Below are positions 1,497 through 62,625 of a DNA stretch of 64,000 bases, in pieces (position 1 is the stretch's first letter; each line of letters opens with the position of its first letter). Source of the stretch: a virus; the IMG/VR virus record IMGVR_UViG_3300011008_000022. One strand, written 5' to 3'. Both the position numbers and the translations under genes were made by a program. A model generated the notes under the pieces. That model saw nothing but the letters and a program-made list of their open reading frames with translations, did no database searches and was not told where the DNA came from.

Positions 1497-2267
1497 ATGA
1501 AACAAGACAAATATTTCTTACGCTTTCAGCAGCTCTGCATTGGCATCCTGGCTCAGTCTGACAACTGCATGGAGTCACAACAGCAGTTCAAGTCTGCTCG
1601 CTCCGTTCCTGAACTGGTGACGGCATGGCAGCGATTTTGGGCGGGTGTCCTACACGAAGTACCTGAACAGGTCATCAAGGCTTTTGCTGACCTCTACCCC
1701 GTCTATCGTGATGACATTATTCGTGCCGGTGTCTATTATAACGAGGCTCCGCCTGTCGGCATCTATCCTGAAAACCCTATATCTCCCGTCTCACCCTCCG
1801 ATGCAGCCACCGTGCCCAGCGCTTCTCCGTTGGGTCCTACCACCAACGCCATGATACTCATCGGCGATGCTCCCGCCACCGTTCCCGATGATTCTCCATC
1901 GGGTGAAACAGCTTCTCCATCGGATCTCGTAATTCATGGCCGTAATCGTGTCTATGTCCTCGGCAACCTCCCCGTGACTGTCACCGACAATTCCAGCGTC
2001 CATGTCAACAGCGACCGTGCCGTAGTGACCGTATGTGGTTCTGCTCGTGCTAACATCGAACGGGGAACACTCATCGCTCGTGACCGTGCCGTAGTCAATG
2101 GCAAGGGTCTCATAACCTGCTACGACTCTACGACGATATATGTCTCTGGTGGTGTCCTGCACGATAAAGGACACCTCGATATCATCGCCTATAACGATGC
2201 GGTCATCAACAGCTTCACCAACCGTCGCATCAAACTCAACGACCAGGCAATCCTGAACATCGAATAA
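1497..2267 (+). CDS. hypothetical protein carrying two in-frame family-A hairpins
   Basis: ATG 1497 after A-rich leader; ORF-track start 1458 is a GTG inside the upstream hairpin (MPSRSRLGPK artefact); ATVPSASPLGPT and ATVPDDSPSGET are encoded by hairpins at 1807-1836 and 1876-1905. Confidence 0.7.
   Translation: MKQDKYFLRFQQLCIGILAQSDNCMESQQQFKSARSVPELVTAWQRFWAGVLHEVPEQVIKAFADLYPVYRDDIIRAGVYYNEAPPVGIYPENPISPVSPSDAATVPSASPLGPTTNAMILIGDAPATVPDDSPSGETASPSDLVIHGRNRVYVLGNLPVTVTDNSSVHVNSDRAVVTVCGSARANIERGTLIARDRAVVNGKGLITCYDSTTIYVSGGVLHDKGHLDIIAYNDAVINSFTNRRIKLNDQAILNIE
1807..1836 (+). repeat. family-A hairpin, in frame in CDS 1497..2267
   Basis: ccaccgtgCCCAGCGcttctcCGTTGGGtc (one G-T pair). 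Confidence 0.85.
1876..1905 (+). repeat. family-A hairpin, in frame in CDS 1497..2267
   Basis: ccaccgttCCCGATGattctcCATCGGGtg; a half copy (agcttctccatcgg) follows at 1910-1925. Confidence 0.85.
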
Positions 2268-2275
2268 TAGTCTCT

Positions 2276-2305
2276 CCACCGTGCCCAGTCGTTCTCGGCT
2301 GGGTC
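2276..2305 (+). repeat. family-A hairpin, intergenic
   Basis: ccaccgtgCCCAGTCGttctCGGCTGGGtc (one T-G pair). Confidence 0.9.
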
Positions 2306-2319
2306 CTAAAAGTAAAAGT

Positions 2320-4989: not shown

Positions 4990-6108
4990 ATGCCTAAAAT
5001 TGAATTGTCCCTTCCCCGCTCCTGGAACCAGTGTACGCTACCTGCGCTCCGTGCTATTGCTGCCGTGCTGACTGACTGCTCGGCACGTATCGATCGCTTC
5101 CATCCTTTTGACATGATGGAGGTAAAGGTGGGGGTATTACTACGTTTAACGAATATCGAAGTGCTGGAACCAATCAACCCGCGAGTAGCGGTCGAAGAGC
5201 AATACTATACCTGCCGCCTACGTCCCTGGACTATCGATGAAGAATATAGTCGTTGGTTCCGTATGCTGCGATACTATCGCAGCTTCTGTGCTTGGTTCCG
5301 TCGCTCTGTCCTCGGACATGATGACACTTTCTCGCTATACGTGTGGCAAATCAATTACTGGCTCACTCCTCACAAAGATCAGGCAACAGGACGCATGGTG
5401 CCTGGTATGCTCGACTGGATGAATAGCGATAGTAAGAGCTTCCTTCAGCGCTTCCCGTTCCCGTCTGTCCGTCGTCGCTCTGGTAAGTGCTCTCGTAAGG
5501 TGACATTCAAGGGACCTAACACGTTTATGGATGGCTTCTCATGGCGACGCTACCGATTCGCTCAGGACTATATGCAGATGTATATCGAACAGCAAAACCA
5601 TTTGCTCGAACTGCAACAGTCTGGCAAGGTGTCGGCAAAGGACTTGCTGAAAGCAACAAAGGCCATGGATCTGTCTAAGGCGCTTTTCCTGGCTACTGTC
5701 TTCAATCGTAAGATAACATTTGTCAACGAGGAAACAGGACAGACTATCACCGATTATCATTACCAGTTTAATCAGCATTCAGATAACAGTCCTTTCTTCC
5801 GTAATTTCGACGATAAGGATTGGCAACTGGTGTGCCTATGGTGGGCGGGCATGATGCACTATTTGCATCAGACTTATCCCAAGGTGTTCAAGGTACAGAA
5901 GGTGAAAGGTAACAAGAAACCTGTCAACCCGCTCATGTTATATGCGCGTACAACGGCAACACTGGAGAAGTACCTCCACTCTACTGCAACGGACATAGAA
6001 AGGGAACCTTACTCCACCATCCTTCAGCAACTCGAAGACATCACACGTCGTAACGAGGAGATAGAAGCTGCAAACCGCAAAATGAGGGCACAATCCCGCC
6101 GTAAGTAG
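4990..6108 (+). CDS. hypothetical protein (372 aa)
   Basis: ATG 4990 after A-rich leader; stop 6106-6108 directly followed by a tandem pair of family-A hairpins. Confidence 0.75.
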   Translation: MPKIELSLPRSWNQCTLPALRAIAAVLTDCSARIDRFHPFDMMEVKVGVLLRLTNIEVLEPINPRVAVEEQYYTCRLRPWTIDEEYSRWFRMLRYYRSFCAWFRRSVLGHDDTFSLYVWQINYWLTPHKDQATGRMVPGMLDWMNSDSKSFLQRFPFPSVRRRSGKCSRKVTFKGPNTFMDGFSWRRYRFAQDYMQMYIEQQNHLLELQQSGKVSAKDLLKATKAMDLSKALFLATVFNRKITFVNEETGQTITDYHYQFNQHSDNSPFFRNFDDKDWQLVCLWWAGMMHYLHQTYPKVFKVQKVKGNKKPVNPLMLYARTTATLEKYLHSTATDIEREPYSTILQQLEDITRRNEEIEAANRKMRAQSRRK

Positions 6109-6235: not shown

Positions 6236-6263
6236 GTTCTGTATGTCGCTATGTCTTAGCGAC
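6236..6263 (+). repeat. family-B hairpin in the 5' leader of 6284 gene
   Basis: gttctgtatGTCGCTAtgtctTAGCGAC. Confidence 0.85.
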
Positions 6264-6283
6264 TTTAAAAAGGAAATAAGATT

Positions 6284-8119
6284 ATGGCAAAAAAGACTTC
6301 TGCTCCCGTCACCCGCGTAAAGGCCAGCAACTTCATAAAAAAGGCTGCTGACCTGCATCGCCGTAACTACTCGGTACTCCTGCCAGGCGACCGCTCTTAC
6401 TATAATTTGGATGGCCCCAGCAGCGATATTTCTTGGGGCGACTTCATCGGCTCACAGCTTCGTGCCGGTGCAACCGAAAATGGTAAGTCTCAGCGTAAGT
6501 CTATACCTACGCTCTATTTCTCGTCAGGAAACGAAAGCCAACAGGGAGCTGAGAAGATTGGTACGCCTAACTTGGGATGGATAGAATGGGGCTATGGCAA
6601 CAACCTGCCTAACATCGTGGCATTGCTCACACACATGCTGCCATATACGGCTGCCGGTCTTAAATTCAACACGGATCTCTGTGCTGGACTCGGACCTCAG
6701 CCGATGTACGACTGTACGCAGTATGTGGGTGGTAACATCACACAGAAACTCATCCGCTATAAGGATGCAGGACAATGGCTGCGCGGACGTATCATCGACC
6801 TGCAGACACAGCTGCTGAACCTCGAACAGAAAAACACCACTCCCGATGATTCATCATCGGGCGAAGGCATGGGTGCTGCTGTTGGCTCTGTAACAGGACG
6901 TGGCGCGAAAAAGTCTGAGGTGTACGATGCACTTGTGGATTCTATCAACGAACAGATAAAGGAATTACAAGAGGCACATAAGGTATGGAAGACTACAGAT
7001 GAGGAGGTACAGAAGTTCCTCGATAATAATAATATCGCTCAGACATGGCTTTCGCTGGTGCTCGATCAGGAACTGTTTGGTATCTCGTTCCCAGAACTGT
7101 TGCTGAACCAGCAAGACCTCGACGAGAATGGAAACCCTGTCAAAACGAAGACTTGGACTCCTCGCGTGACGGGTATCGCCCACCGTTCATGCCATACGAC
7201 CCGCATGGAGCGTATGGATGAAATGGGTAAGATTAACTTCGTGTACTGCTCTACAAGATGGCTTGATAAATACTTCATCGAACAGGGTGGAGAGAATAAC
7301 GCGCCTATCAATGCTATACCTGCCCTCCATGTGCCCTCTCCTCTTGCTTCACTGGAGGAGAAGGTACGTGAGGCTCGCCAGAAAAATGTATCTGTCAACA
7401 ACAGACCGACGCACTTTGTTTTGCCGACGGTCTATCCTACCGCTGGTCGCCCATATTACCCGACTCCTGCCTGGTACTCTATCTTTGGTGGTGATATCTA
7501 CGAATACATCACAACGATATTCTCAGACCGCCTCTCTCGTAAGCGTAACAGCAATGTCATCGGACGTGTCATCTATCTGCATAACGATTACATGCAGCAG
7601 TTGTTTGTGGCCAAAAAAGCACAGGCTGATGCTAACAAACAGGCTGAGATACGCGACAAACTCTATACGCAGATCAACCAGTGGCTCGCCAATCGCAACA
7701 ATGCCGGACAGTCATTGCTGGCTTTCACATTCATGGGCACGGATGGTAAGGAGCATAAGAGCTTCGAGATTGTAGAGATCGAAAGCAACAATAAGGATGT
7801 GGTGGCAGCCAACGAGAAAGAGACGGCTGAACTGTCATCAGTGGTATTCATGGCTCTGGGTCTTGATGGTCGTCTGCTGGGTTCTTCGCCGCTGTCTCTC
7901 GTAGGTAGCAACGGTGGTACTGACATCCGCGAACGCTTCCTGCTTCGCTTGATCCTGAAATCACCGCAAATCAACATCATGCTTAAACCGCTGGAAGTGC
8001 TCTCTCGCTTCAACAAGTGGGACCGCCACCTGGTATGGCAGGTGCAAAAGCAGGCAATGACAACACTTGACCGCTCTAAATCGGGCGTGACAACACAATC
8101 TGACGACGAAGGTAAATAG
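6284..8119 (+). CDS. hypothetical virion-block protein (611 aa)
   Basis: Preceded by -7 box 6215-6222 and family-B leader hairpin 6236-6263; long ORF; function not recognisable by eye. Confidence 0.75.
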   Translation: MAKKTSAPVTRVKASNFIKKAADLHRRNYSVLLPGDRSYYNLDGPSSDISWGDFIGSQLRAGATENGKSQRKSIPTLYFSSGNESQQGAEKIGTPNLGWIEWGYGNNLPNIVALLTHMLPYTAAGLKFNTDLCAGLGPQPMYDCTQYVGGNITQKLIRYKDAGQWLRGRIIDLQTQLLNLEQKNTTPDDSSSGEGMGAAVGSVTGRGAKKSEVYDALVDSINEQIKELQEAHKVWKTTDEEVQKFLDNNNIAQTWLSLVLDQELFGISFPELLLNQQDLDENGNPVKTKTWTPRVTGIAHRSCHTTRMERMDEMGKINFVYCSTRWLDKYFIEQGGENNAPINAIPALHVPSPLASLEEKVREARQKNVSVNNRPTHFVLPTVYPTAGRPYYPTPAWYSIFGGDIYEYITTIFSDRLSRKRNSNVIGRVIYLHNDYMQQLFVAKKAQADANKQAEIRDKLYTQINQWLANRNNAGQSLLAFTFMGTDGKEHKSFEIVEIESNNKDVVAANEKETAELSSVVFMALGLDGRLLGSSPLSLVGSNGGTDIRERFLLRLILKSPQINIMLKPLEVLSRFNKWDRHLVWQVQKQAMTTLDRSKSGVTTQSDDEGK

Positions 8120-8146
8120 TTCTGTATGTCGCTATGTCATAGCGAC
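8119..8146 (+). repeat. family-B hairpin between 6284 and 8167 genes
   Basis: gttctgtatGTCGCTATGtCATAGCGAC. Confidence 0.9.
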
Positions 8147-8166
8147 CTCAAAATAAAAGAAAAGAT

Positions 8167-9204
8167 ATGGCACAAGGATTACTCATACAAGGTGCATCAC
8201 CACTCGTAGGCAGCCCTATCACTTATCAGGTGACAGCAGCGGTCATCAGTGGCGATTGCGCTTTTCATCGTGTCAAACTGACGGTATCGGCATTCCTCGA
8301 AGGTGTCGATATCAACTTTGCCGACCTCACGCTGTCCTCTCCGGCTGAGTCGGGAGAAATCCTGAAGTTCGACATCAGCAGCGCACTACGTGCTGTCGCA
8401 GATAAGTATGAGTACACTGTCAACCCGCCTGCCAACTATCCGCGTATCGGATATAGACTGTCTGCCTGCGATGAGTACATGCAGAACGGAGAGGTACACG
8501 ATAACGTGGGCGTGGTGACGATTGACACCATTCAGTATTGCATCATGGGTGCCTACTCGGATATGGAACGTCTGCTATCTGCTGGCAGCAAGTCGGCACA
8601 GCACTTTACACGCAAGCCGAACACGATGCCGGAGGTGGTGGCCGTAGGAGAGAGCATGGTATGCCCTCAGTCCTATGCTCAACCCGTCAGCAGTGGAAAT
8701 ATTACCGTAGGACCTACATCATCGGTGGTAAACATCGTCAACGAGGGATTGCAGACGGTCAATGGCCGTCAGGTGTATGCACTGCCTGCAGGACAGAAAG
8801 ACCGTTACGAGTTCCGCTTTGTCAATGGCCTGGGATGCCTCGAAAGCATCAGCGTAAAGGCTTTGCGTACCTCTGAAACGAACGTTACCCAGGAGTCTTT
8901 CATTCGCTCGGTGCAAGAGACGTTCAACTCATTCTCGCGAGGACTCGTGACTAAGAAAAACGATTACGAGACTTGGAAGATGTGTAGTGGACCGCTCGAC
9001 GAAGCATGGCATTCGTGGTTCATGCACGAGTTCATCATGGCTAAGTTCGCCTGGATAAAAATCAACGGACATTGGATAGGGTGCCACATCGTTCCTGAAG
9101 AAACAGTAGATGGCATCGATCGTACCAGCGGCAACTTCATGCAGGTGGAGTTCTCAGTACAACTTGACATCAATGGCAGCCCACTCGCTGCTTTGGCCAT
9201 ATAG
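8167..9204 (+). CDS. hypothetical virion-block protein (345 aa)
   Basis: Preceded by family-B hairpin 8119-8146; stop abutted by family-A hairpin 9205-9233. Confidence 0.75.
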   Translation: MAQGLLIQGASPLVGSPITYQVTAAVISGDCAFHRVKLTVSAFLEGVDINFADLTLSSPAESGEILKFDISSALRAVADKYEYTVNPPANYPRIGYRLSACDEYMQNGEVHDNVGVVTIDTIQYCIMGAYSDMERLLSAGSKSAQHFTRKPNTMPEVVAVGESMVCPQSYAQPVSSGNITVGPTSSVVNIVNEGLQTVNGRQVYALPAGQKDRYEFRFVNGLGCLESISVKALRTSETNVTQESFIRSVQETFNSFSRGLVTKKNDYETWKMCSGPLDEAWHSWFMHEFIMAKFAWIKINGHWIGCHIVPEETVDGIDRTSGNFMQVEFSVQLDINGSPLAALAI

Positions 9205-9233
9205 CCACCAATCCCAGCCGTTCTCGGCTGGAC
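9205..9233 (+). repeat. family-A hairpin, abuts stop codon
   Basis: ccaccaatCCCAGCCGttctCGGCTGGac. Confidence 0.85.
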
Positions 9234-9266
9234 CTCGAAAAGAAACAACATAATAATAAAATAAAA

Positions 9267-10388: not shown

Positions 10389-11066
10389 ATGGAAAAATTT
10401 AACTATCAACAACCGTGCTGCATCGAGAGCACACTGCCACAGCTGCTGAAGAAATACGACTGGCTGCCATTCCAGACAAGTGGCGATGTGACAGTAGAGA
10501 AAATCCTGAAGGCTGTAAGCTACCTCGCTGGCAACAACCTCGACATCACTATCTGCCTGCCGGCTATCGACGTAACAATCCTGCGCCTATTCGCTTGGTA
10601 CCATAGACGTGGATGGCTGAAAGCGTTTACCGTCTTAACGGCAACAGACCAAAGCGAACTGATCCGTAACGAATTGCCAAAGGAACTGCCACTAACCATC
10701 GTGGATAGTGCCGACATCCCCGAAAACTATGGTATGTTGGTCATCAAAGGTGAACTGAGCAATGTCATCGTCAATGGTCCGATCTTCTCAGTCGTCACAC
10801 CAGGCATCTGTTCCTATACGGCATACTATGGCAAAGACCCAGAGCGTATCGCTCAACTGACCGACACCATCAATGCCCGCATCCGCGTCGCTGATGCCAA
10901 AAAGAAAAGGGCTGCAAGGAAAACAACCCCAAAGAAAAAAGGCACCACCACTCCCGCCTCCGAAGCTCCTGCTCCCGCTGATGGTTCCACTGTGCTCGGC
11001 GATTCTGTCGTCGAGGAAAAAGACTCCACCTCTCCCGCTGCTTCTCCAGCGGGCACTGATGAATAA
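10389..11066 (+). CDS. hypothetical protein with K/T/P-rich C-terminus
   Basis: 225 aa; 4-nt gap from previous gene; C-terminal low-complexity tail contains two in-frame hairpins (10987-11056). Confidence 0.7.
   Translation: MEKFNYQQPCCIESTLPQLLKKYDWLPFQTSGDVTVEKILKAVSYLAGNNLDITICLPAIDVTILRLFAWYHRRGWLKAFTVLTATDQSELIRNELPKELPLTIVDSADIPENYGMLVIKGELSNVIVNGPIFSVVTPGICSYTAYYGKDPERIAQLTDTINARIRVADAKKKRAARKTTPKKKGTTTPASEAPAPADGSTVLGDSVVEEKDSTSPAASPAGTDE
10987..11056 (+). repeat. two family-A-type hairpins in frame in CDS 10389..11066
   Basis: ccactgtgCTCGGCGAttctgTCGTCGAG and ccacctctCCCGCTGcttctcCAGCGGGcac. Confidence 0.75.
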
Positions 11067-11778: not shown

Positions 11779-11905
11779 GTTTCGTCTATTGTTCGGCGAT
11801 TGCATCGCCGCTTTTCGTTCTGTGCCCAGCGCTTTTCCGCTGGTCCTGTATGTCGCTATGTCATAGCGACCTTAGCCATCGTGCCCAGCCGTTCTCGGCT
11901 GGGTC
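11779..11905 (+). repeat. composite C-A-B-A hairpin cluster between two minus-strand genes, all in + orientation
   Basis: gtttcgtctattgttcGGCGATtgcATCGCC; tgtgCCCAGCGcttttcCGCTGGtcc; ctgtatGTCGCTATGtCATAGCGAC; ccatcgtgCCCAGCCGttctCGGCTGGGtc. Confidence 0.9.
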
Positions 11906-12220
11906 TTATCCATAGATCTTCGTCCCGTCTATATCCACAATCAGGAAGTCCCACACATACCTGATAGCCCCAGAGTCCACAAACTGCACCCTGCGCAAAT
12001 GCTTACGACGGTCAACATCCAACGAAATCACCATGCCGCTCTCCAGTCGCCCGCTCTTCGTCACAAAACGGACGAAAAACGGCACTCTGGCCAACTTCTG
12101 TACGCCAGGAGGGGGATTGTACCCTACAGTCATCAGTCCCGTGCGTTTATCCTGCCACGTCCACTTCTCTGCGAACATGCGCACCTTCTGCCAGTGCTCA
12201 CTTGGTTGTCTTTTTGGCAT
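11906..12220 (-). CDS. hypothetical protein (104 aa)
   Basis: ATG 12220 (MPKRQPSEHW) lies about 30 nt downstream of a minus-strand -7 box (TATCTTTG, + coords about 12248-12262); track start 12250 would sit inside the promoter. Confidence 0.6.
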   Translation of the reverse strand: MPKRQPSEHWQKVRMFAEKWTWQDKRTGLMTVGYNPPPGVQKLARVPFFVRFVTKSGRLESGMVISLDVDRRKHLRRVQFVDSGAIRYVWDFLIVDIDGTKIYG

Positions 12221-12401: not shown

Positions 12402-12728
12402 ATGACCTCAAAATTAGACCTTAATCGTGCTTTTAGTGAGCACGGAGTTACTTCTAAGACCGTTGCAGAGCGCATCGGACTGACACCACAGACCATCAGC
12501 GCTTATGTCAACGGCAACCCCACCGTCAAGAGCCTCTATCAGATAGCAGATGCACTTGAATGTGATGTGCGCGACCTGTTCTATCCCGTCGAGGATGCCA
12601 CAGAGGAAACCACCACTCCCGATGCCTCTCCATCGGGCACAAACGGCCCTCGTGCCTCTGCTCTGATTACATGTCCGCATTGCGGCACAGTCCTCTCAGC
12701 ATCCCTTTCGGTCTTCAACAAATCATAA
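12402..12728 (+). CDS. XRE/Cro-CI family HTH transcriptional regulator
   Basis: KTVAERIGLTPQTISAYVNG helix-turn-helix; C-terminal CPHCG; in-frame hairpin 12610-12640 (TTTPDASPSGT). Confidence 0.8.
   Translation: MTSKLDLNRAFSEHGVTSKTVAERIGLTPQTISAYVNGNPTVKSLYQIADALECDVRDLFYPVEDATEETTTPDASPSGTNGPRASALITCPHCGTVLSASLSVFNKS
12610..12640 (+). repeat. family-A hairpin, in frame in the XRE regulator gene
   Basis: ccaccactCCCGATGcctctcCATCGGGcac. Confidence 0.85.
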
Positions 12729-12748: not shown

Positions 12749-13276
12749 ATGAAAAAGCAATTATTTTCTTCCCTCCTGTTTTGTTTGGTGTGTTGCTGTG
12801 TTGCAGCAACTTTCCCCCAGTCTGCTAACGCTCAGGTGGAGTTCTCGAAGTTCAAACTCAGTAAGGATGAGCCTTTCGGTGCTTTCCCTGGACGTAAGAT
12901 GCTCAATACCAAATTCAAGGTGACTGCCGACCGCGACCTGAAATATATCCTCGTGGACTATTACATCGTCAATGCCGTTGGCGATGTTATCTCCGGCTAC
13001 ACACAGGCCATCAAGAATGATACCCTGGAGTTCATCAAACCCAAACGCATGGAATGTACTGGTCCATACAACGCAGGCAAGTCCTACTCCCCTTGGGTCA
13101 GCGGTGTAATCACCTACCCTAACAAAGACATCACCGCCTTCCCGTTCCAAATACAAGTCATGTATATGGGCACCGATGATTGGGTCACAATCCCTATCAC
13201 CAAAGATAACCTCACCACCTATTTTCCCTCCCTCAAATGGATTGAATATAGTCGAAAGAATAAGAAAATCCTATAA
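12749..13276 (+). CDS. secreted hypothetical protein (moron candidate)
   Basis: Signal peptide MKKQLFSSLLFCLVCCCVAATFPQSANA; followed by its own terminator at 13285-13313. Confidence 0.75.
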   Translation: MKKQLFSSLLFCLVCCCVAATFPQSANAQVEFSKFKLSKDEPFGAFPGRKMLNTKFKVTADRDLKYILVDYYIVNAVGDVISGYTQAIKNDTLEFIKPKRMECTGPYNAGKSYSPWVSGVITYPNKDITAFPFQIQVMYMGTDDWVTIPITKDNLTTYFPSLKWIEYSRKNKKIL

Positions 13277-13284
13277 TTATTACT

Positions 13285-13313
13285 CCCCGCCGATTTCGGT
13301 GGGGTTTCTTTTT
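13285..13313 (+). terminator. intrinsic terminator (family-A-like stem plus T-run)
   Basis: CCCCGCCGAttTCGGTGGGGtttcttttt. Confidence 0.8.
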
Positions 13314-20790: not shown

Positions 20791-20791
20791 C

Positions 20792-20822
20792 CCACCGTGC
20801 CCAGCCTTTCTCGGCTGGGTCC
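20792..20822 (+). repeat. family-A hairpin, 1 nt after the stop codon
   Basis: ccaccgtgCCCAGCCtttctcGGCTGGGtcc. Confidence 0.9.
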
Positions 20823-20826
20823 CTCT

Positions 20827-37321: not shown

Positions 37322-37349
37322 GTTCTGTATGTCGCTATGCCATAGCGAC
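37322..37349 (+). repeat. family-B hairpin between minus-strand genes, + orientation
   Basis: gttctgtatGTCGCTATGcCATAGCGAC. Confidence 0.9.
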
Positions 37350-37357
37350 TCATTCTT

Positions 37358-38178: not shown

Positions 38179-38206
38179 GTTCTGTCTGCAGCTATGTCAT
38201 AGCGAC
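38179..38206 (+). repeat. family-B hairpin between minus-strand genes, + orientation
   Basis: gttctgtctgcaGCTATGtCATAGCgac. Confidence 0.8.
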
Positions 38207-38211
38207 TCCAT

Positions 38212-38388: not shown

Positions 38389-38396
38389 TCCTTTTC

Positions 38397-38424
38397 GTTC
38401 TGTATGTGGCTATGTCATAGCCAC
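38397..38424 (+). repeat. family-B hairpin, stem variant, + orientation
   Basis: gttctgtatGTGGCTATGtCATAGCCAC. Confidence 0.9.
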
Positions 38425-42160: not shown

Positions 42161-42173
42161 CTGTCTTCGTTAG

Positions 42174-42199
42174 TGTGCCCAGCCGTTCTCGGCTGGGTC
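42174..42199 (+). repeat. family-A hairpin between two minus-strand genes, + orientation
   Basis: tgtgCCCAGCCGttctCGGCTGGGtc. Confidence 0.9.
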
Positions 42200-42220
42200 T
42201 CTACACCTTATTATTATATA

Positions 42221-45298: not shown

Positions 45299-45687
45299 TG
45301 AGACAGCCATGTCGAAGAAAACCAGGAAGACCGCTGAAAGACCGTCGCAGACATCTTCTTATAGCGGCTACAACAGACTTTCGAGGACCCGATGAAGACC
45401 AACTCTTCTTCCTCTTTCGCGGTGCCTCGCATCGTCTGCTATCTGATGTGTTCCGTTTTCTCATCGGCAATGGTAATGGTATCGCTCGTCAGGTGGTCAT
45501 CACCGAAGAGCACGACACCATCAAACGTAATGGTAAGGGGTATTGGCGCATGGCAGTGAAACTCTGTGAACCAAACTACCACTTCTGCAGCCTGGAAGAT
45601 ATGCGCATACTCATCGATGCAGCGTTCCATCGTCATCATCCCTGCTCAGTCCATTGGCTCACCATTGATAAGTTCCTAAACGTATAG
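45298..45687 (+). CDS. hypothetical basic protein (129 aa)
   Basis: TAATG overlap with the previous gene; N-terminal RKPGRPLKDRRR. Confidence 0.5.
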   Translation: MRQPCRRKPGRPLKDRRRHLLIAATTDFRGPDEDQLFFLFRGASHRLLSDVFRFLIGNGNGIARQVVITEEHDTIKRNGKGYWRMAVKLCEPNYHFCSLEDMRILIDAAFHRHHPCSVHWLTIDKFLNV

Positions 45688-45688
45688 C

Positions 45689-45716
45689 AACCGTCCCAGC
45701 CGTTCTCGGCTGGGTA
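45689..45716 (+). repeat. family-A hairpin, intergenic
   Basis: caaccgtCCCAGCCGttctCGGCTGGGta. Confidence 0.9.
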
Positions 45717-45730
45717 CTAAAAGCAAAAAT

Positions 45731-50046: not shown

Positions 50047-50048
50047 GT

Positions 50049-50077
50049 CCCTGTGTCCAGCCGTTCTCGGCTGGGTC
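50049..50077 (+). repeat. family-A hairpin after the primase-helicase gene
   Basis: ccctgtgtCCAGCCGttctCGGCTGGgtc. Confidence 0.9.
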
Positions 50078-50129
50078 TCACTAAGGAAACAACGTAATAA
50101 CAATAAAAAATTAACTTAAAAGTAAAATT

Positions 50130-50729
50130 ATGGCACGTTACAGATTTTCTATCGACATCGGCACCTTTATCGGTGCCAGGTTCTTAAACCTCACACTCAC
50201 AGAGGGTGGTAAACCCATTCCTGGCATCTTCATCCCTGCTGGCATCAATGGCATAGAGATACAACAGGACACCCGCGATGAGGGTAAGCGCAACGCCTCC
50301 GGCTTCCGTGCATTCCTGAACTTCCTCCAGCGCTCGTGCAATGGTAAGTACATCGATGCAGTGAAACAGTCACTCATGCGCAAAGGCGAAGAAATCACAC
50401 TCTACAACGTCCCTGCCTATCAGGTGGCCTACACGCTGCCCGAAGAGAAACGTAACAAAATCCGTGCGGCTCTCAAAGCGCGTGTCATCGCTGATCATCC
50501 TGAATGGAAAGACCAGTCCGACACACAGGGAACCGACCTCTCACGCGCTATCTCTATGCTGGTTCCCTATCAGATGGGCGACTCCTACCTGGTGGAAGAC
50601 CAGAACACGCAGCAGCCACGTAACAGCTCCGCACCTGTCGCTCAGGGTGTAGCCGGCTATACTCAGCCTGCCTCTTCTGAATACGACCCGTTTGGCGGTG
50701 GCGAAGCCAACGACGACCTCCCATTCTAA
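50130..50729 (+). CDS. SSB-like protein (non-canonical N-terminus, canonical SSB C-terminal tip)
   Basis: Q/P/G/S-rich linker followed by a terminal DPFGGGEANDDLPF, which matches the SSB-Ct tip consensus DDD(I/L)PF; sits between the primase-helicase and the clamp. Confidence 0.45.
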   Translation: MARYRFSIDIGTFIGARFLNLTLTEGGKPIPGIFIPAGINGIEIQQDTRDEGKRNASGFRAFLNFLQRSCNGKYIDAVKQSLMRKGEEITLYNVPAYQVAYTLPEEKRNKIRAALKARVIADHPEWKDQSDTQGTDLSRAISMLVPYQMGDSYLVEDQNTQQPRNSSAPVAQGVAGYTQPASSEYDPFGGGEANDDLPF

Positions 50730-50730
50730 C

Positions 50731-50759
50731 CCCTGTGCCCAGCCGTTCTCGGCTGGGTC
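50731..50759 (+). repeat. family-A hairpin after the SSB-like gene
   Basis: ccctgtgCCCAGCCGttctCGGCTGGGtc. Confidence 0.9.
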
Positions 50760-50777
50760 CCTAAAAAAGCATTAACA

Positions 50778-52363: not shown

Positions 52364-52779
52364 TGGATAATATGTATAACTGTGATTTTATCGCAAAGTC
52401 ACTTGTTGCTGATGAGGGCTGTGCCACCAACTGTCCTGGTGTTACTCACCGTATAGAGGTGGCCTGCTTCTTCCGGCATGGCCGCACATCCTATTTCATT
52501 GCGAAAGATGGCCGTGTCCTATCAGCTCCTACAGCCACCGTGCTCGATGGTTCTCCATCGAGTCCTGGCGCTCTCTGTAAGGAGATAGCATCTTTCAACG
52601 GCAAGGGCTATCGCCGTGTCCGTCTCGCTGGTAAGAACTTTAAGGTGCATCGCCTCGTGGCAGAAGCCTTTGTCCCTAACCCAGACAACCTTCCCCACGT
52701 CATCCATATCGATGGCAACCGCACCAATAATCATTTCTCTAACCTCAAATGGTCCGCCACCCAGTCTAACCGCGAATGA
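52363..52779 (+). CDS. HNH homing-type endonuclease (HNH_3/NUMOD4-like)
   Basis: VHRLVAEAFVPNPDNLPHVIHIDGNRTNNHFSNLKW; TAATG overlap with dut; in-frame hairpin 52535-52564. Confidence 0.75.
   Translation: MDNMYNCDFIAKSLVADEGCATNCPGVTHRIEVACFFRHGRTSYFIAKDGRVLSAPTATVLDGSPSSPGALCKEIASFNGKGYRRVRLAGKNFKVHRLVAEAFVPNPDNLPHVIHIDGNRTNNHFSNLKWSATQSNRE
52535..52564 (+). repeat. family-A hairpin, in frame in the HNH gene
   Basis: ccaccgtgCTCGATGGttctCCATCGAGtc (both arms changed relative to CCCGATGG/CCATCGGG). Confidence 0.85.
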
Positions 52780-58200: not shown

Positions 58201-61071
58201 AAAGCCTATGTCGATGACATGAGGGCTGCCGGAAAGTCTGTCGAAGATATCAATAAAGACCTGGCAAAGAAACTGGGTGTCGAAGGCAAGGTGGCTCGTG
58301 ATGCTTATAACCGCCGTTCTGATAAGACTTTGCGTACTACTTTCTTCGATCAAGAGAGTTATCGGGCACAGGCGCAATATGATATGGATGGTGGTTTTGC
58401 TGCCGCCAGAAATACGACCCGCGCCCTCACCCAAGCCGAACAGATGTTGTATGCCGCTACTCGTTATGCTACGCAGGCGTACTCCGCATCCAACGCCATG
58501 AACCGCGTCAATAAGAAGTGGAAGCCGTTTGAGGAGGACCTATCGACGGTCACTGATGAGACTCCTGGCACCCTCGACAACGATGCACCCGATAAGGAAG
58601 CCGAGAAGCGCCGCAAGGCTGAGGAAGCGGCTCGACGCAAGGCGCTCCGTGCGGAAATGAAGGAGGAACAGGCTAAGGCTCAGGCTATCGTCGATAATGT
58701 CAAGAACTACTACGAGCGTCAGATTGCTGCCATTACGGAAATGGCTACAAAGACGGGCATGGATTCTGAACTCCAGAAGAAACTCGTCGATGGTATGACC
58801 GTCCGCATGAATAATGCACTGGCTAATGTCCGTCAGGCTATCGCTGGCACTGAGAACGATTGGGCTGACTTCCGCCAGTCGATGATAAATGACCTCTACG
58901 AACCGCTGTCTGAGGATGGTACTAACCAGTCCACACAGTTGCTCGATAACATCATCCATAATGATATCGACAAACTGAAGGAAATGATTACGGTTCTCTC
59001 GAAAGAACTGGGACAGAATGGCTCTGTGCTTCTCGATCAGATATGGCGTAAGGCTACTGAGAATGAACTGAAAAACGCTAACCAACAGAACAAGGCATAC
59101 CAGGAGCGTCAGAGGGTGCTTCTGGAAAAGAACTATACGGGCAAGGTAAACCTCGACTACGAGAACCAGATGGAACAGTTTGGTGTCGCCGAACTGACCT
59201 CTGAACAGATTGCTCAGATGATGGGGTGGTCGCAGAAGGGTAACAACGAGGCTATCCAACAGTTTCTCGATGACCGTACCGAACAGTGGCAAAAGGCGTT
59301 TGCATCGGCCCGTAAGAATGTCGTTGACCTGCTCTCTGTCGATGCCAACAGTGAGGATGCACCTGATAAGGTGCTCACTATCCTCTTCGGTAAGGATTAC
59401 AAGTCTTATCTCGCCGGCACGGGCCTCTCGTCACTGCTCGATATGTCTGCCGACCAGTTCAAGGTGTTCTACCAGAAACTCATCGAATACTCTGATGCCT
59501 ATACTGATGCTCAGAAGAAAGCCTACGACGAGGCAAAACGTCGGGCGGATTTCATCTTTAATAACAATCCTACCATTCAGAGTATCGACCAGTCAACACA
59601 ACAGCTGTCAACCATCAACAGCGACCAGCAACGCTTCGAGTCTGATAAGAACATCGGACAGCAGATGGGTATGTCCTGGAACATCGATTCTGACCCCGAA
59701 ATTCTGCGCTATCGCCTGCTGGCTGAACGTGCCCGTCTCTACTATGAGGATATGGCGCGTCTGCGTGAACAGGATAAGATCTCTGAACAGCAGCTGACGG
59801 ATGCAAAGCGTCAGATGATGGAGGCTCAGTCTAACATGGCCGACCAGGTGGCTCGTAAGTTCCATGAGCGGGTGTCTCTGCTCCAGAACTTCTCCGAACC
59901 GCTGAACACCTTTGCCGAAGGGGTAGGGGAGTCGCTGGGTAACATGATCTACGACACCGAACAGTCGGATGTCAAGATGAAAGACTTGCTGAAAGACATG
60001 CTGAAGTCGTATGTGAAGATGTCGCTGCAACTTATTGCCCAGGACCTCACACGCCGTGTCACTAAGCAACTCTACTACCGTCAGGAGGAAATGGATGAGA
60101 CAATGCACCAGCAGACCATGCTGCAAATACAGCAGCTCTACCAGTCGCTGATGTTGACAGCTCAGACTACTGGCGATGCAGCGCGTCTTACACAACACGC
60201 CACATCGAATGCTACCGAACTGTCAGCAGAGGCGGGTGCTACCACTGGTAAGGTGGGCCTCGGTATTGCCGGTGGTGCAGCTAAGATCATCGGCACCCTG
60301 GGCTTCTGGGGTATTCCGCTGATTGGTGTGATTACGGCACTCTTGATGGGACTGCTCTCTTGGGCTATCGGATTGGCTTTCGGTGGCGATGACAGCGGTG
60401 CCAGTGCATCGGATGCTACGCCTAACGTCAAACTCGCCACAGGTATGTTGACGTATGACAGCGGTAACGTGCAGAGTGTGGGCAACGGTTCTCCCGTTGC
60501 TTCTCCCTCCGGCTATGCGCCCTCCGCCTCTCCTGGTGGTAGTGGTGCGCCCGCTGGTGCTGCCGGCGGGGATAGAACGCCTGTCCTCGGTTCTGATGGC
60601 TATGTCTATCAGGCTCGCCAGGTGCCACAACTGCAGACGGGTCTCGTCACGTCGCCTATCGCCACCATGGTCAACGGACAACCGTCACTGGTTGGCGAAC
60701 GTGGCCCTGAAATGGTGATTGGACGCGAGACAACAGCAGCAATGCAGATGGCACGTCCCGACCTCCTCGCGGCTATCGTGAAGTTTGATAAGAACTACTC
60801 CAATGGCCATGCCTATCGCACCTATGACGAAGGCAACCTCTCCGACTTCGCCACCGTGCCCGATGGATCTCCATCGGGTGAAGGCACTCTCACCAAAGAG
60901 GATATCGACGGACTCCGTTCTACGCTCTCCGAGTTTACAGCGGTCATGCTGGCTATCAAGCGCAACGGCCTCCATGTCAACAAGTACGGACGTGGTGGCA
61001 TCGCTCAGGAGTCGCAGGATGGCGCTAATTTCATGCGTCGTAACTCCGGCGACCGTCTCTGGAAAGGTTAG
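55282..61071 (+). CDS. tail tape measure protein
   Basis: 1929 aa; long coiled-coil regions; TP901-type core (ADLAYQGGKMGFG...SINQLSATSTASGTHIVDFAKRL...LGSAADALGQ); central hydrophobic segments; in-frame hairpin 60851-60880. Confidence 0.85.
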   Translation: MADKQIYIKISADSAQPVAAVKAMRNELSRLQKAYDAINTSTATGAQRAQKLQKEMADLRALIKQQEADMNKVSKVITNLSNASLSQLNQALRQVKKEISRTSESSPKLEELRQKYKAITDQIKVMNGEMINIKKHMGELSTQTDSWLQRAINQQKQLVESTQKTSSAYQGQVNILHQLQNEQARRAVSTISDGGASADALRTARANLVSYRDQLGKGGILPASGNVATEIERINAELKKCDDQLDAIAGKEKQIELTTDQLQQKADNIILDPKKFSPKEIKAAIDEIQKKLNNLGTNDTARKKLNEQMKQLKNILDGVDHELVNIGDLLKPGNLRKAPLETLQKAAKQLENEMAKLNRDQQQYIDKQKQLAAIRGEIERTTGAINRQGSAWKTTFRNISMYFGVFQLFSIAQQKLQGMLQSNLAYSDQLADIRKVTGLATKEVNELSDSLATLNTRSTVQDLADLAYQGGKMGFGKYGVEGMSAFVRAADQVKVALSDDLGDDSLLQISKLVDTMGLIPKLGVERSMLAVGSSINQLSATSTASGTHIVDFAKRLTGLSRITGITTPELLALGSAADALGQAPEVAATAFGKLFTSLQTNHNLIEQQLNMEKGTINNLFSQGKAMEAILQIMEKMREKGNMNALGNIWKDLGSEGQRLIGVMATMSKNVDTVRAHVEESNVAFEEATSLTNEYALKQDTANAILEKGNNLWAKAFTNPEGVDMVKQMAQAWYDLSKSMTSNEASMWIMKNLLGLIAAELKILLALLPAILTGLLFKGASVAIIGLASSIGLMGKNAVLATLQTKGLVAAWHALNTAQKMNVIGLCISLLTGLAIAIASVIKKGNEATTWMQGFNSTMSDFNREFAIADDRLKRFKKAIDDAATGSRQRAAAIRNFNKEYGQYLSKMLTEKSTADDIAKAYKEVVKQLRAKIALQMKEKDITSQVAPRVGWSADRLTEYDNVAGGSAYNGTWLKAYVDDMRAAGKSVEDINKDLAKKLGVEGKVARDAYNRRSDKTLRTTFFDQESYRAQAQYDMDGGFAAARNTTRALTQAEQMLYAATRYATQAYSASNAMNRVNKKWKPFEEDLSTVTDETPGTLDNDAPDKEAEKRRKAEEAARRKALRAEMKEEQAKAQAIVDNVKNYYERQIAAITEMATKTGMDSELQKKLVDGMTVRMNNALANVRQAIAGTENDWADFRQSMINDLYEPLSEDGTNQSTQLLDNIIHNDIDKLKEMITVLSKELGQNGSVLLDQIWRKATENELKNANQQNKAYQERQRVLLEKNYTGKVNLDYENQMEQFGVAELTSEQIAQMMGWSQKGNNEAIQQFLDDRTEQWQKAFASARKNVVDLLSVDANSEDAPDKVLTILFGKDYKSYLAGTGLSSLLDMSADQFKVFYQKLIEYSDAYTDAQKKAYDEAKRRADFIFNNNPTIQSIDQSTQQLSTINSDQQRFESDKNIGQQMGMSWNIDSDPEILRYRLLAERARLYYEDMARLREQDKISEQQLTDAKRQMMEAQSNMADQVARKFHERVSLLQNFSEPLNTFAEGVGESLGNMIYDTEQSDVKMKDLLKDMLKSYVKMSLQLIAQDLTRRVTKQLYYRQEEMDETMHQQTMLQIQQLYQSLMLTAQTTGDAARLTQHATSNATELSAEAGATTGKVGLGIAGGAAKIIGTLGFWGIPLIGVITALLMGLLSWAIGLAFGGDDSGASASDATPNVKLATGMLTYDSGNVQSVGNGSPVASPSGYAPSASPGGSGAPAGAAGGDRTPVLGSDGYVYQARQVPQLQTGLVTSPIATMVNGQPSLVGERGPEMVIGRETTAAMQMARPDLLAAIVKFDKNYSNGHAYRTYDEGNLSDFATVPDGSPSGEGTLTKEDIDGLRSTLSEFTAVMLAIKRNGLHVNKYGRGGIAQESQDGANFMRRNSGDRLWKG
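60851..60880 (+). repeat. family-A hairpin, in frame in the tape-measure gene
   Basis: ccaccgtgCCCGATGGatctCCATCGGGtg (peptide ATVPDGSPSG). Confidence 0.9.
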
Positions 61072-61101
61072 TCACCGTGCCCAGCAGTTTTCGGCTGGGT
61101 T
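61072..61101 (+). repeat. family-A hairpin, abuts the tape-measure stop codon
   Basis: tcaccgtgCCCAGCAGttttCGGCTGGGtt. Confidence 0.85.
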
Positions 61102-61102
61102 C

Positions 61103-61141
61103 TCATAAATTCATAAATTCATTAAATTATCAATTCATCAA
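61103..61141 (+). repeat. TTCATMA array before the ACP gene
   Basis: ctcataaattcataaattcattaaattatcaattcatca. Confidence 0.8.
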
Positions 61142-61144
61142 ATT

Positions 61145-61408
61145 ATGGAAGAAAAACTTTTCGCTCGTATCGTGGCGCTCCTCACCGCCCACTTCGACAA
61201 CATGCCTGCAGCCGAGGACATCCACCTCGACGACAATCTGCATGAAGACCTCAATCTCGATTCTATCGACATTGTGGACTTCATTATGATGTGTGAAACG
61301 AACTTCAACATTAAACTCGACATGACAGATGCGAAGAACACGCACACCCTGCGCGACCTCATCCGTTCTATCATCGAAGTAAAGCCCAGCCTATGCGACG
61401 CACAGTAA
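61145..61408 (+). CDS. acyl carrier protein
   Basis: 87 aa acidic four-helix pattern with the phosphopantetheine-site motif DLNLDSIDIVDFI (DSxD). Confidence 0.75.
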   Translation: MEEKLFARIVALLTAHFDNMPAAEDIHLDDNLHEDLNLDSIDIVDFIMMCETNFNIKLDMTDAKNTHTLRDLIRSIIEVKPSLCDAQ

Positions 61409-62625
61409 TCACGGGCATGGGCATCTGGTCCTGCATCGGTCAGTCCGTTCAGGAGGTGGCTCAGTCTCTCCGTCTTGGAAAGAGTGGCATCGGCATCGAT
61501 CCTGAGCGTACCGCCTACGGCTACCAATCACCCCTTACCGGCATCGTGCCGCGTCCCGACATCAAGGCTCAGGGATTGCGACGCTCTCAGCGCATCACAC
61601 TCTCCGAACCTGGTGAATATGGCTACATGGCCATGAAAGAGGCGCTGACGATGGCTCCTGTCAGCGACCTCTATCGCTGTGGCCTTATCGTCAGCAATGA
61701 CAGCACTGCTGGCGCTCTCGCTGAGACAGAGGCTATCATGGCGGAATACCATGACAGCCGACGACTGGGTGCCGGCATGGTGTTCCGCACCCTCAATAGC
61801 TCGGTATCTATGTCGCTGGCTTCCATCTTTGGCATCGGTGGCCTCACACTCTCCGTCTCTGCTGCCTGTGCCGGTGGTGGCCACGCTATCGGTCTCGCTC
61901 ATTCGCTCATTCAGTCCGGCCAACTGGACTGCTGCATTGTGGTAGGCGCTCAGGAGGTAGGACTACATGCCTATACATCCTTTGATGCACTCGGTCTCTT
62001 CAGCAAGCGTACCGACAACCCAGCAGCTGCCTCACGTCCGTTTGACACAGAGCGTGACGGCCTCGTGCCCTCTGGTGGCGCTGCCTGCGTTATCCTCGAA
62101 ACAGCCGGACATGCCGCTATGGGAAACAGAAAACCCTTGGCCATGGTCGATGGCTATGGCTTCTCCACCAGTCCCGATCTCGTTTCTCCCTCTTCCGATG
62201 CTATTTACCAGTCCATGACCGCCGCCCTATCTGCCGCCACTGTGCCCAGCGGTTCTCCGCTGGGTCCTGGTATCTCCGCTATCATGGCTCACGCTACCTC
62301 CACGCCCGATGGCGACCGTGCCGAGGCAGAAGCTATCCACCGCTTCTGTCTTGATAATGGTCTATCTCATCCTTTCGTCATCAGCACCAAGGCGCTCACA
62401 GGTCACGAGTGCTGGATGTCGGGTGTCTCTCAGATCGTCTATGCACTCATACAGATGCAAGGTGGTTTCATAGCACCAAACATCAACCTCCGCACCATCG
62501 ACCCAGCAGCAGCTACGCTACGCATTCCAACAGCGCCAACCGTCACCACGCTAACCACCGTTCTCTGCAACGCCTTCGGTTTCGGTGGCACCAACAGTAG
62601 CCTGGTAATCTCTCGCGCTGGCTAA
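61393..62625 (+). CDS. beta-ketoacyl-ACP synthase (KAS I/II, FabF/FabB-like)
   Basis: VITGMGIWS, active-site SAACAGGGHAIG (Cys), HATSTPDGDRAE (His), TGHECWMSG (His), NAFGFGGTNSSLVI; overlaps the ACP gene by 16 nt; in-frame hairpin 62237-62266. Confidence 0.85.
   Translation: MRRTVITGMGIWSCIGQSVQEVAQSLRLGKSGIGIDPERTAYGYQSPLTGIVPRPDIKAQGLRRSQRITLSEPGEYGYMAMKEALTMAPVSDLYRCGLIVSNDSTAGALAETEAIMAEYHDSRRLGAGMVFRTLNSSVSMSLASIFGIGGLTLSVSAACAGGGHAIGLAHSLIQSGQLDCCIVVGAQEVGLHAYTSFDALGLFSKRTDNPAAASRPFDTERDGLVPSGGAACVILETAGHAAMGNRKPLAMVDGYGFSTSPDLVSPSSDAIYQSMTAALSAATVPSGSPLGPGISAIMAHATSTPDGDRAEAEAIHRFCLDNGLSHPFVISTKALTGHECWMSGVSQIVYALIQMQGGFIAPNINLRTIDPAAATLRIPTAPTVTTLTTVLCNAFGFGGTNSSLVISRAG
62237..62266 (+). 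repeat. family-A hairpin, in frame in the ketoacyl synthase gene
   Basis: ccactgtgCCCAGCGGttctCCGCTGGGtc (peptide ATVPSGSPLG). Confidence 0.9.

Follow-up and report, generated by a model that had tools for sequence, protein, structure and literature searches.

Strand-locked hairpin repeats between and inside the genes of a Prevotella-type phage and its relatives

A repeated hairpin unit tied to stop codons

The DNA analysed here, hereafter called the window, is the 64-kb virus record IMGVR_UViG_3300011008_000022 of IMG/VR (64,000 nucleotides, nt), which derives from a ~100-kb Prevotella-type (Bacteroidota) phage. Short palindromic repeats lie between its genes and, in frame, within them (Table 1). 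The unit of the main family, which we call type A, is ~35 bases long (33-37 nt) and consists of an 8-nt box, CCACCGTG, followed by an 8-bp G+C-rich stem closed by a pyrimidine-rich loop, TTCT; with its flanks, the consensus is TAG-CCACCGTG-CCCAGCCG-TTCT-CGGCTGGG-TC. The window contains ~45 type A copies, with ~25 non-coding, 13 in frame in the sense orientation and 5 antisense. They exceed chance expectation: the 14-mer AGCCGTTCTCGGCT, allowing up to 3 mismatches, matches 29 times as against 5.1±2.3 times in shuffled sequences, none of 100 shuffles reaching 29.

A position weight matrix together with a covariance model identified 27 strong copies, exclusively on the + strand. The covariance model, built on 27 copies, recovers them at E<1e-5 along with weaker ones, all on the + strand, and its matches on the - strand are palindromic stems read in reverse, nothing else. 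A looser hairpin scan, for G+C-rich structures with loops of the TTCT type, gave 47 hits on the + strand and 7 on the - strand. Over the window, no Rfam family was matched at its gathering score and a tRNA search found none; megablast of 24 kb of the window against GenBank phage records returned no match.

The units are tied to stop codons. Of ~14 first copies after a + strand gene, 10 begin exactly on the TAA or TAG of that gene, and many intergenic copies end 16-21 nt upstream of the next ATG. T tracts are restricted to copies at operon ends (11107, 11164, 6116 and 13285 in a scan of 1-20 kb; 31689 and 54636 by sequence). Intercistronic and coding copies have none and thus do not qualify as intrinsic terminators, so that a minority of the copies is terminator-like. 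Start codons are preceded by A-rich leaders, with no Shine-Dalgarno sequences.

A second family, type B, has a layout like that of type A, with the box TTCYGTATG followed by the hairpin GTCGCTATG..CATAGCGAC; it adjoins TAG and occurs on the + strand only, starting at 5257, 6237, 8120, 11844, 30070, 37323, 38180, 38398, 54596 and 63063.

Other elements share these gene borders. Promoter boxes of the TAnnTTTG (Bacteroidota-type -7) kind, TATCTTTG and similar, lie near 6220, 12370, 15790, 19920, 24890, 28490, 31750, 42700 and 44785, and after several of them (near 6220, 15790, 19920, 24890 and 42700) comes a small hairpin, then an A-rich leader and an ATG. An 8-nt unit, AATTCATN, forms tandem arrays of 2.5-6 copies in the leaders just 5' of many start codons (12723-12742, 19543-19572, 21138-21170, 23737-23764, 24355-24397, 25359-25401, 27514-27540, 28401-28448 and 61103-61146). 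These arrays could serve as A/T-rich translation leaders without structure, or as binding sites.

Copies inside genes and the pairing of their stems

A first-pass annotation, made from the sequence alone, had proposed that copies lie in frame in at least 11 genes without breaking them. This is what we found, with 13 sense copies in 9 + strand genes and 5 antisense copies in 2 - strand genes, giving 11 hosts in total. All host open reading frames (ORFs) behave as genuine genes. Compared with relatives, their substitutions concentrate at codon position 3 (23/18/74, 13/7/67, 2/0/16, 3/2/13 and 5/2/12), an excess seen for all hosts, both - strand genes included, and Pfam domains flank the copy on both sides in a ketoacyl synthase (KAS), the DNA ligase, the XRE regulator, the HNH endonuclease and the tape measure protein. 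Most sites on the earlier host list were recovered; the list had omitted the copy at 6831 in gene 6284-8119, its copy in the ParG-like gene is doubtful (E=5.7), and the two antisense copies that it placed in 40608..41672 are in fact three, in a gene that extends over 40608-41705. Within the proteins, the copies are located in linkers, tails or loops. One of the ligase copies occupies the spacer that separates the OB domain from the Zn finger, which is ~30 residues longer than that of LigA. All coding copies are predicted to form hairpins, with folding energies of -10 to -19 kcal/mol.

A single frame, called F3 here (GCC ACC GTG CCC ...), is common to 12 of the 13 sense copies, which in this frame encode (A/T)TVP(S/D)xSP(S/L)G; by simple arithmetic, the chance of 12 out of 13 in one frame is ~5e-5 if frames are equally likely. 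The motif had been attributed to the + strand genes in general, to which the ligase copy at 27046 is an exception, as it is in frame F2, retains the canonical stem and encodes Ala-Gln-Pro-Leu-Ser-Ala-Gly. Read in F3, the canonical stem gives Ser-Arg-Ser-Arg-Leu, and for this reason all F3 coding copies have re-paired stems encoding Pro, Asp, Gly and Ser. None of the 12 F3 coding copies has the canonical stem, as against 16 of 22 non-coding ones (Fisher p=3.7e-5), and the F3 stems are altered in both arms (AGCGG/CCGCT, GATGG/CCATC, GCTGC/CCAGC and similar). The codon strings AGC GGT TCT CCG CTG and GAT GGn TCT CCA TCG, which the first-pass annotation had interpreted as recoding specific to genes, both occur in coding copies as written, but the flip from C-G to G-C is also present in non-coding copies, at 6106, 54658 and 62623. 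A second HNH copy, present in the related genome L008 only, is in frame F1 and has another paired stem, CCCAGTGG/CCACTGGG. The stem type therefore depends on the frame, with F3 copies re-paired, the F2 copy canonical and the F1 copy carrying a stem of its own.

The pairing goes beyond what the codons require. In a codon-aware control, the F3 peptides were kept fixed and synonymous codons were redrawn from the phage's own usage. The 12 F3 copies have 86 of 96 positions paired, versus 57.9±3.8 expected and a maximum of 72 in 5000 trials, and the covariation anticipated by the first-pass annotation thus persists under codon constraint. Among 100 distinct copies from the window and its relatives, 94% of the stem cells are paired and changes on both sides of the stem number 130, against 41±4 after shuffling (0/500), in a set that was partly selected for at least 6/8 pairs, a selection problem from which the codon-aware control is free. 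Shifting the 3' partner by 1-3 columns reduces pairing to 23-49%. Four of the eight stem pairs show 2-4 Watson-Crick types, and non-standard pairs comprise 22 G-T versus 11 A-C. The copies have a common ancestry, and these statistics consequently overstate independence.

These data bear on the notion of a peptide linker, ATVPDGSPSG, under protein selection, with the hairpin as its by-product. The segment is Pro/Ser/Gly-rich like linkers, and it recurs in many proteins. However, the DNA unit is present ~25 times outside genes, synonymous sites pair far above the prediction from codon usage, and there are orthologues without the peptide. As the F2, F1 and antisense copies keep the hairpin while encoding unrelated peptides, a purely peptide-level motif is excluded, and we regard an origin in protein selection as extremely improbable.

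Table 1. Positions of type A and type B units and related hairpins in the window; L numbers denote related genomes.
Position	Strand	Location	Description	Detection
1804..1839	+	Gene 1497-2267	Type A, F3; ATVPSASPLG; stem AGCGC/CCGTT; also in L001, L018, L019	
1873..1908	+	Gene 1497-2267	Type A, F3; ATVPDDSPSG; stem GATGA/CCATC	
6831..6866	+	Gene 6284-8119	Type A, F3; NTTPDDSSSG; 8/8 stem GATGA/TCATC; retained in L001	
10984..11020	+	Gene 10389-11066	Type A, F3; 5-nt loop; STVLGDSVVE	Looser hairpin scan
11023..11058	+	Gene 10389-11066	Type A, F3; STSPAASPAG; stem GCTGC/CCAGC	
12607..12642	+	XRE helix-turn-helix (HTH) regulator 12402-12728, linker	Type A, F3; TTTPDASPSG	
27046..27081	+	NAD-dependent ligase 25808-27442, OB domain/Zn finger linker	Type A, F2; canonical stem; VAPSQPLSAG	
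27267..27303	+	Ligase, second copy	F3; 5-nt loop; TTALGGSPTD	Looser hairpin scan
29494..29528	+	ParG-like gene 29388-29732	Doubtful degenerate copy	Covariance model alone, E=5.7
40856..40957	+	Gene 40608-41705 (- strand)	3 type A copies (40856, 40889, 40922), head-to-tail, 33-nt period; antisense, in frame	
43268..43303	+	Gene 42757-43656	Type A, F3; TTVPDASPSG	
44110..44181	+	CI-like HTH repressor gene 43836-44621 (- strand), linker	2 adjacent copies (44110, 44146); antisense, in frame	
52532..52567	+	HNH endonuclease gene 52291-52779	Type A, F3; ATVLDGSPSS; stem CTCGATGG/CCATCGAG	
60470..60506	+	Tape measure gene	Degenerate copy, F3; VGNGSPVA	Looser hairpin scan
60848..60883	+	Tape measure gene 55282-61071	Type A, F3; ATVPDGSPSG	
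62234..62269	+	KAS 61393-62625, immediately 5' of HATST block	Type A, F3; ATVPSGSPLG	
1450..1485	+	Intergenic	Type A; stop codon of gene 19-1452 supplies first 3 bases; 17 nt before next ATG	
2273..2308	+	Intergenic	Type A; type B hairpin instead in L001, L018, L019	
4939..4975	+	Intergenic	Variant TAA-TCACAGTG-CCCGCTGA..TCAGCGGG; begins on stop codon	
6106..6178	+	Intergenic	2 tandem copies, beginning on TAG of gene 4990-6108; L001 lacks both	
9202..9237	+	Intergenic	Begins on TAG; missing from L004, present twice in L006	
9774..9809	+	Intergenic	Begins on TAG; type B hairpin in L004	
11099..11189	+	Intergenic, end of + operon	2 copies with T-rich tails (terminator-like)	
11814..11908	+	Non-coding	Cluster of type A, type B, type A	
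13274..13309	+	Left border of 1.37-kb cassette absent in L004	Variant hairpin; begins on TAA	
14674..14713	+	Right border of 1.37-kb cassette	Related terminator-like hairpin	
20789..20824	+	Intergenic	Type A adjoining TGA of gene 19960-20790	
31678..31713	+	Intergenic, upstream of TAnnTTTG promoter	Copy with T tract	
32389..32424	+	Between convergent genes, border of - strand block	Copy	
42167..42202	+	Non-coding, between - strand ORFs	Type A	
45685..45719	+	Intergenic	Begins on TAG	
50045..50080	+	Intergenic	Adjoins TAA of gene 46378-50046	
50727..50762	+	Intergenic	Begins on TAA	
54596..54693	+	Non-coding	Cluster: type B, then 2 type A (33-nt period), T tracts	
61069..61104	+	Intergenic	Begins on TAG of tape measure gene	
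62623..62658	+	Intergenic	Begins on TAA of KAS	
62763..62798	+	Non-coding	L056 orthologue has AGAA loop	
63097..63132	+	Non-coding	Preceded by type B hairpin 63063-63095	
5257..5290	+	Gene 4990-6108, in frame	Type B (TTCCGTATG + CTGCGAT..ATCGCAG)	
6237..6270	+	Just 3' of TAnnTTTG promoter	Type B	
8120..8152	+	Directly after TAG of gene 6284-8119	Type B; L001 has type A there	
37323..37356	+	Between - strand genes	Type B, + orientation	
38180..38431	+	Between - strand genes	2 type B (38180-38212, 38398-38431), + orientation	

Turnover in relatives, strand lock and spread to other phages

Comparison with related genomes reveals turnover of the units and lineage-specific coding segments. In the comparison with homologues that the first-pass annotation had called for, the peptide is absent from those of KAS and of the XRE regulator. 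In the sequence alignment, FabB structures show a gap of 8-9 residues at the site of the KAS copy, and phage orthologues of KAS (68-69% identity, genomes of ~101 kb) read AIQDADINPEQ-L, with no hairpin, where the window has ALSAATVPSGSPLGPGI. XRE orthologues in L004 and L012 are without the hairpin and show an 18-nt gap. The KAS segment is 5 residues longer than its counterpart in the phage orthologues and replaces an ancestral loop. The earlier description of an insert just before HATST, at a loop of homologues, is thus accurate as regards lineage specificity but not as regards a pure insertion. The site was placed by sequence alignment, an AlphaFold model of KAS computed from a shallow alignment being unusable (mean predicted local distance difference test score, pLDDT, of 33). 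A sister lineage (69%) has neither the KAS segment nor copies nearby, and KAS variants that are >93% identical all retain the segment; one of them (L041) adds a 33-nt type B unit right after it, and another adds 66 nt before it. In one KAS variant, P0087, the TAA is lost and the 62623 hairpin is read through in F1, adding 22 residues, YSPCPAPLRWASLTILVLPLCR. Fusion by loss of a stop codon was considered and rejected as the origin of coding copies, since the stop is in F1 and coding copies are in F3, with P0087 as the exception. The locus itself (61145-62625) encodes an acyl carrier protein (PP-binding, 87 residues) that overlaps the start of the FabB-like KAS, whose catalytic-His block reads HATST, not HGTST.

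Similar differences affect other sites. The HNH gene of L008 has its additional 33-nt copy in frame, relatives have extra in-frame copies in the tape measure gene and in gene 4990-6108 (L003, L001), and the first copy of gene 10389-11066 lacks 21 nt in L006. Between genes, empty sites were found at 6108 (L001) and at 9204 (L004), in both cases with gain or loss of the unit directly after the stop codon and no target-site duplication. The doublet formed at 9202 in L006 resembles that at 44110-44181. Types A and B exchange at orthologous spacers among relatives. A 1.37-kb cassette (13313-14686, with gene 13312-14475) is bordered by like hairpins, CCCCGCCGATTTCGGTGGGG and CCCCACCGAACTCATCGGTGGGG, and is missing in L004, which retains one chimeric hairpin at the site. 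In L056, the hairpin at 3014-3033, orthologous to window position 62774, has the same stem and left flank with the loop AGAA instead of TTAT/TTCT, corresponding either to a loop inversion or to a rare copy in the opposite orientation.

Paired changes are also seen at orthologous coding sites. In HNH, the stem CTCGATGG/CCATCGAG of the window and L007 is CCCGCTGG/CCAGCGGG in L008, two pairs being changed in both arms. At 11034 in gene 10389-11066, GCTG/CAGC corresponds to GATG/CATC in L011, and near 60480 in the tape measure gene, CAACGG/CCGTTG corresponds to GGCGG/CCGCC in L003. The L011 copy at 11034 has become identical over 31 nt to the XRE-type copy, so that at least one of the paired changes looks like conversion.

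Such changes might be taken to mean that coding copies are functional cis-elements, involved in mRNA pausing, processing or stability, under direct selection for both hairpin and peptide. Pairing of 86 against 58±4 positions (0/5000), both-arm changes at orthologous sites, including a T-A pair unique to HNH, intact stems retained over ~15% divergence, and the recurrence of frame and peptide in unrelated phages are consistent with this explanation, and the excess of G-T over A-C pairs, 22 vs 11, is expected if the + strand folds. However, near-identical genomes vary in the presence and number of copies within one gene, the sister lineage manages without them, and host genes and positions have only insertion tolerance in common. 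In addition, the 5 antisense copies imply mRNAs that carry the element backwards, and conversion and template switching can mimic compensation. On balance we find a cis-acting function of the coding copies unlikely. The first-pass annotation had invoked simultaneous selection on structure and peptide. Its observation that the stem survives recoding stands, with pairing beyond codon needs, but selection on the stem at coding sites is only one way to read the data: copy-to-copy conversion fits equally well, self-templated repair of quasi-palindromes would also give paired flips, and either process could suffice.

The strand lock, the stop-codon tag, the type B family and the spread to unrelated phages were all absent from that annotation. 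In each relative the copies are confined to one strand (e.g., 0 vs 13 or 12 vs 0), and exact matches in a 101.9-kb contig all have the same orientation. Nine copies in regions of the window transcribed from the - strand are still + oriented, namely 5 type A copies in genes, the one at 42167 and 3 type B copies between genes. It is thus the DNA strand, and not transcription, that sets their orientation. GC skew is negative (to -0.24) across + and - gene blocks, whereas AT skew changes sign with gene orientation; the constant sign of the former fits a replication-linked asymmetry without proving one. The 7-mer CACCGTG is present 20 times on the + strand and once on the - strand, with 7 of the + strand occurrences outside hairpins.

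These asymmetries would suit a genome-wide, strand-specific DNA function, such as priming or loading sites on a single template strand, packaging or ejection signals, or polar protection, for which coding copies would be set by spacing. The orientation with respect to the DNA strand, the constant sign of GC skew over both gene orientations and the 20 to 1 bias of CACCGTG, 7 of its copies being outside hairpins, all point that way. Nevertheless, the spacing is uneven, with clusters on the one hand and, on the other, a single strong non-coding copy plus the ligase copies in ~14-31 kb and a lack of type A copies from 32.5 to 40.5 kb. Near-identical genomes also differ freely in copy number, conservation of the box in other lineages is limited to GTG, and the close association with stop codons and with the leaders of start codons points towards gene expression. 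We accordingly judge a function of this kind to be quite improbable.

The units are present in unrelated phages as well. The coding variant CCCGATGnTTCTCCATCGGG, with the box, was found in viral contigs that have no other alignable DNA in common with this lineage. Its frame there is again F3 and its peptide ATVPDGSPSG, which forms part of linkers or C-terminal tails in two Mu-like portal proteins, one Mu F-like protein and one holin. These contigs also have TAG-box-hairpin units after stop codons, with lineage-specific stems (CCCTGCGG/CCGCAGGG and others). What the lineages have in common is the GTG tag, a stem that starts C-rich and a TTCT-like loop, nothing more; the box is not conserved. 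An exact hairpin scan of one representative genome per species (185,579 species) gave single matches, some in Prevotella/Bacteroidaceae bins. A repeat family of the host was rejected on this basis, given the single matches per genome and the resemblance of the Prevotella or Bacteroidaceae ones to phage DNA.

Outside the window, upstream of its start, relatives encode a diversity-generating retroelement, with a 448-residue reverse transcriptase and a 126-nt pair of template repeat (TR) and variable repeat (VR) (L009 11662-11787 and 12147-12272; L014). Every TR/VR mismatch is at a TR adenine. The reverse transcriptase was discarded as a mobiliser of the hairpins, as it belongs to a standard retroelement of this type; hairpins of the family are nearby, but nothing connects it to their spread.

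Relation to known repeats and interpretation

Rickettsia palindromic elements (RPEs) are inserted in frame in unrelated functional genes, where they encode conserved peptides at tolerant sites, and are also found outside genes (PMC10969869; PMC3733652). The units of the window similarly are palindromic repeats that lie in frame in functional protein genes and outside genes, bearing out the likeness noted in the first-pass annotation, including the smaller size and the phage context. Indeed, RPE-1 measures ~100-150 bp and encodes 30-50 residues, as compared with 33-37 nt and 11 residues here. In addition, RPEs belong to an intracellular bacterium, whereas the present units are in phages, strand-locked, tied to stop codons and endowed with stems re-paired by frame.

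Repetitive extragenic palindromes (REPs) of the GTAG and CGTC super-families are 20-40 bp stem-loops with an unpaired end tag, mostly located 3' of ORFs and sometimes supplying the stop codon; CGTC families have 8-9 bp stems, 4-5 nt loops and no known transposase, and small intragenic REPs, some wholly inside ORFs, are already described in bacteria (PMC3733652). Like REPs, the window unit is a short stem-loop, repeated ~45 times in 64 kb. In contrast with the GTAG or CGTC tag, the stem-adjacent bases are CGTG, TGTG or CACT, with TAG/TAA 8 nt upstream, and the stem begins with C-G rather than A-T pairs, with no CCA tail. REPs mostly form head-to-head dimers and occupy both strands of host chromosomes, whereas the copies described here are arranged head-to-tail with a 33-37 nt period on one strand of phage genomes. 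RAYT, an HUH tyrosine transposase needed for GTAG REPs only, was not found when ~80 proteins were compared with Pfam or PHROGs; many of the ORFs have no annotation.

In T4-type phages, PeSL cassettes (an early promoter plus a stem-loop) are repeated at gene borders and at the edges of indels or replacements between close relatives (PMC2839356, PMC4122927). The window hairpins likewise swap at orthologous spacers and border a cassette that is gained or lost. Unlike PeSLs, which are not reported inside genes, they are promoterless, the TAnnTTTG boxes being elsewhere, and enter ORFs in frame. Miniature inverted-repeat transposable elements (with a length of 70-300 bp, terminal inverted repeats and duplicated target sites) are longer than the window units, which show no duplication at 6108 or 9204. 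Palindromes derived from IS200/IS605 are inserted strand-specifically beside a short target by a Y1 HUH transposase. The units are strand-locked and often lie right after TAG/TAA, and no Y1 transposase was found in the ~80 proteins. A CRISPR-repeat mimic, an integron attC site and a Chi-like site were discounted because of size, copy number, the lack of a box common to all lineages and the lack of an integrase.

In quasi-palindrome template switching, known in E. coli and T4, an imperfect inverted repeat has one of its arms rewritten with the other as template, generating paired changes without selection. Both the inverted loop of L056 and the paired changes seen at orthologous positions fit this process. 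It is a mechanism, not a family, and leaves the shared box, the link with stop codons and the colonisation of new sites unexplained. Because the family has neither the tags and dimers of REPs, nor the size of RPE-1, nor the promoter of PeSLs, it is kept apart from these systems, yet it is of a known kind. In literature searches directed at such repeats in phages, we found no description of such units inside phage genes.

Taken as a whole, the data make it probable that the units form a REP/RPE-like family of copy-and-paste hairpins, acting between genes as RNA hairpins, terminators or recombination joints and tolerated as linkers inside genes. Multiplication would take place by copy-and-paste, of which ectopic conversion from existing copies is the part demonstrated, and would include an insertion step, presumably single-stranded or coupled to replication, that operates in one DNA orientation only. 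Between genes, position and architecture suggest that the units most likely serve as RNA hairpins that separate cistrons, with true terminators solely where a T tract follows, and they would also provide patches of homology for hairpin swaps and for the gain or loss of cassettes. Inside genes, units would persist only where they alter the length by a multiple of 3, occupy a linker, loop or tail, and encode a harmless peptide. Their paired stems could stem from paired donors, conversion between copies or self-templated repair of quasi-palindromes, alone or in combination; the hairpin within genes may itself be directly selected, but this need not be so.

A bolder version of this reading is a tentative one. 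The units might constitute an undescribed phage-borne class, present in several Prevotella-type lineages, strand-locked and stop-codon-tagged, that spreads by a single-strand or replication-coupled process without a recognisable transposase. They would serve at once as RNA punctuation or termination in a host without Shine-Dalgarno sequences, as joints for cassette swaps and, in frame, as 'hairpin linkers' constrained both in their DNA or RNA structure and in their peptide.

Several points weigh against the copy-and-paste reading. The unique T-A pair of HNH arose through two amino-acid changes, with no T-A donor among the loci examined, and fits selection or self-templating better than conversion. 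The copies of gene 1497-2267 are identical between genomes whose flanks have diverged by ~15%, which could reflect constraint, not neutrality. One copy, in L056, seems inverted. We saw no clean insertion scar or target-site duplication, and several coding 'insertions' are replacements with diverged flanks. No transposase, RAYT, Y1/HUH or integrase was identified in ~80 proteins (Pfam for ~70, PHROGs for 10), a set in which many are unannotated. Finally, the proposed RNA role between genes is deduced from position and architecture.

The family illustrates that tiny palindromic repeats can colonise phage genes without breaking them, including those for the KAS (fatty-acid synthase) catalytic domain, DNA ligase, portals and tape measure, with both pairing and the encoded peptide shaping the same 20 bases. 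It constitutes a natural test bed for overlapping constraints of structure and coding, as hundreds of close public assemblies show gains, losses and paired changes. The strand lock without a known transposase raises the question of how the units spread, and the succession of stop codon, hairpin and A-rich leader provides a testable model of cistron separation in Bacteroidota phages. For annotation purposes, the units account for many small in-frame indels and for several spuriously extended ORFs.

Two other regions of the window deserve mention. The non-coding segment 14475-15228 harbours iteron-like arrays whose units measure 39 nt (14492-14589), 21 nt (14752-14900, ~6 copies) and 44 nt (15018-15114), and is a candidate replication or partition region; a ParA gene is found at 28522-29385. 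The - strand block 33725-39522 encodes a GNAT acetyltransferase, an N6/N4 DNA methylase, a PAPS-reductase-like protein and a protein with a weak radical-SAM/4Fe-4S match (below the Pfam cut-off). This block contains no type A copies, which suggests that it is a separately acquired module, possibly for DNA modification.

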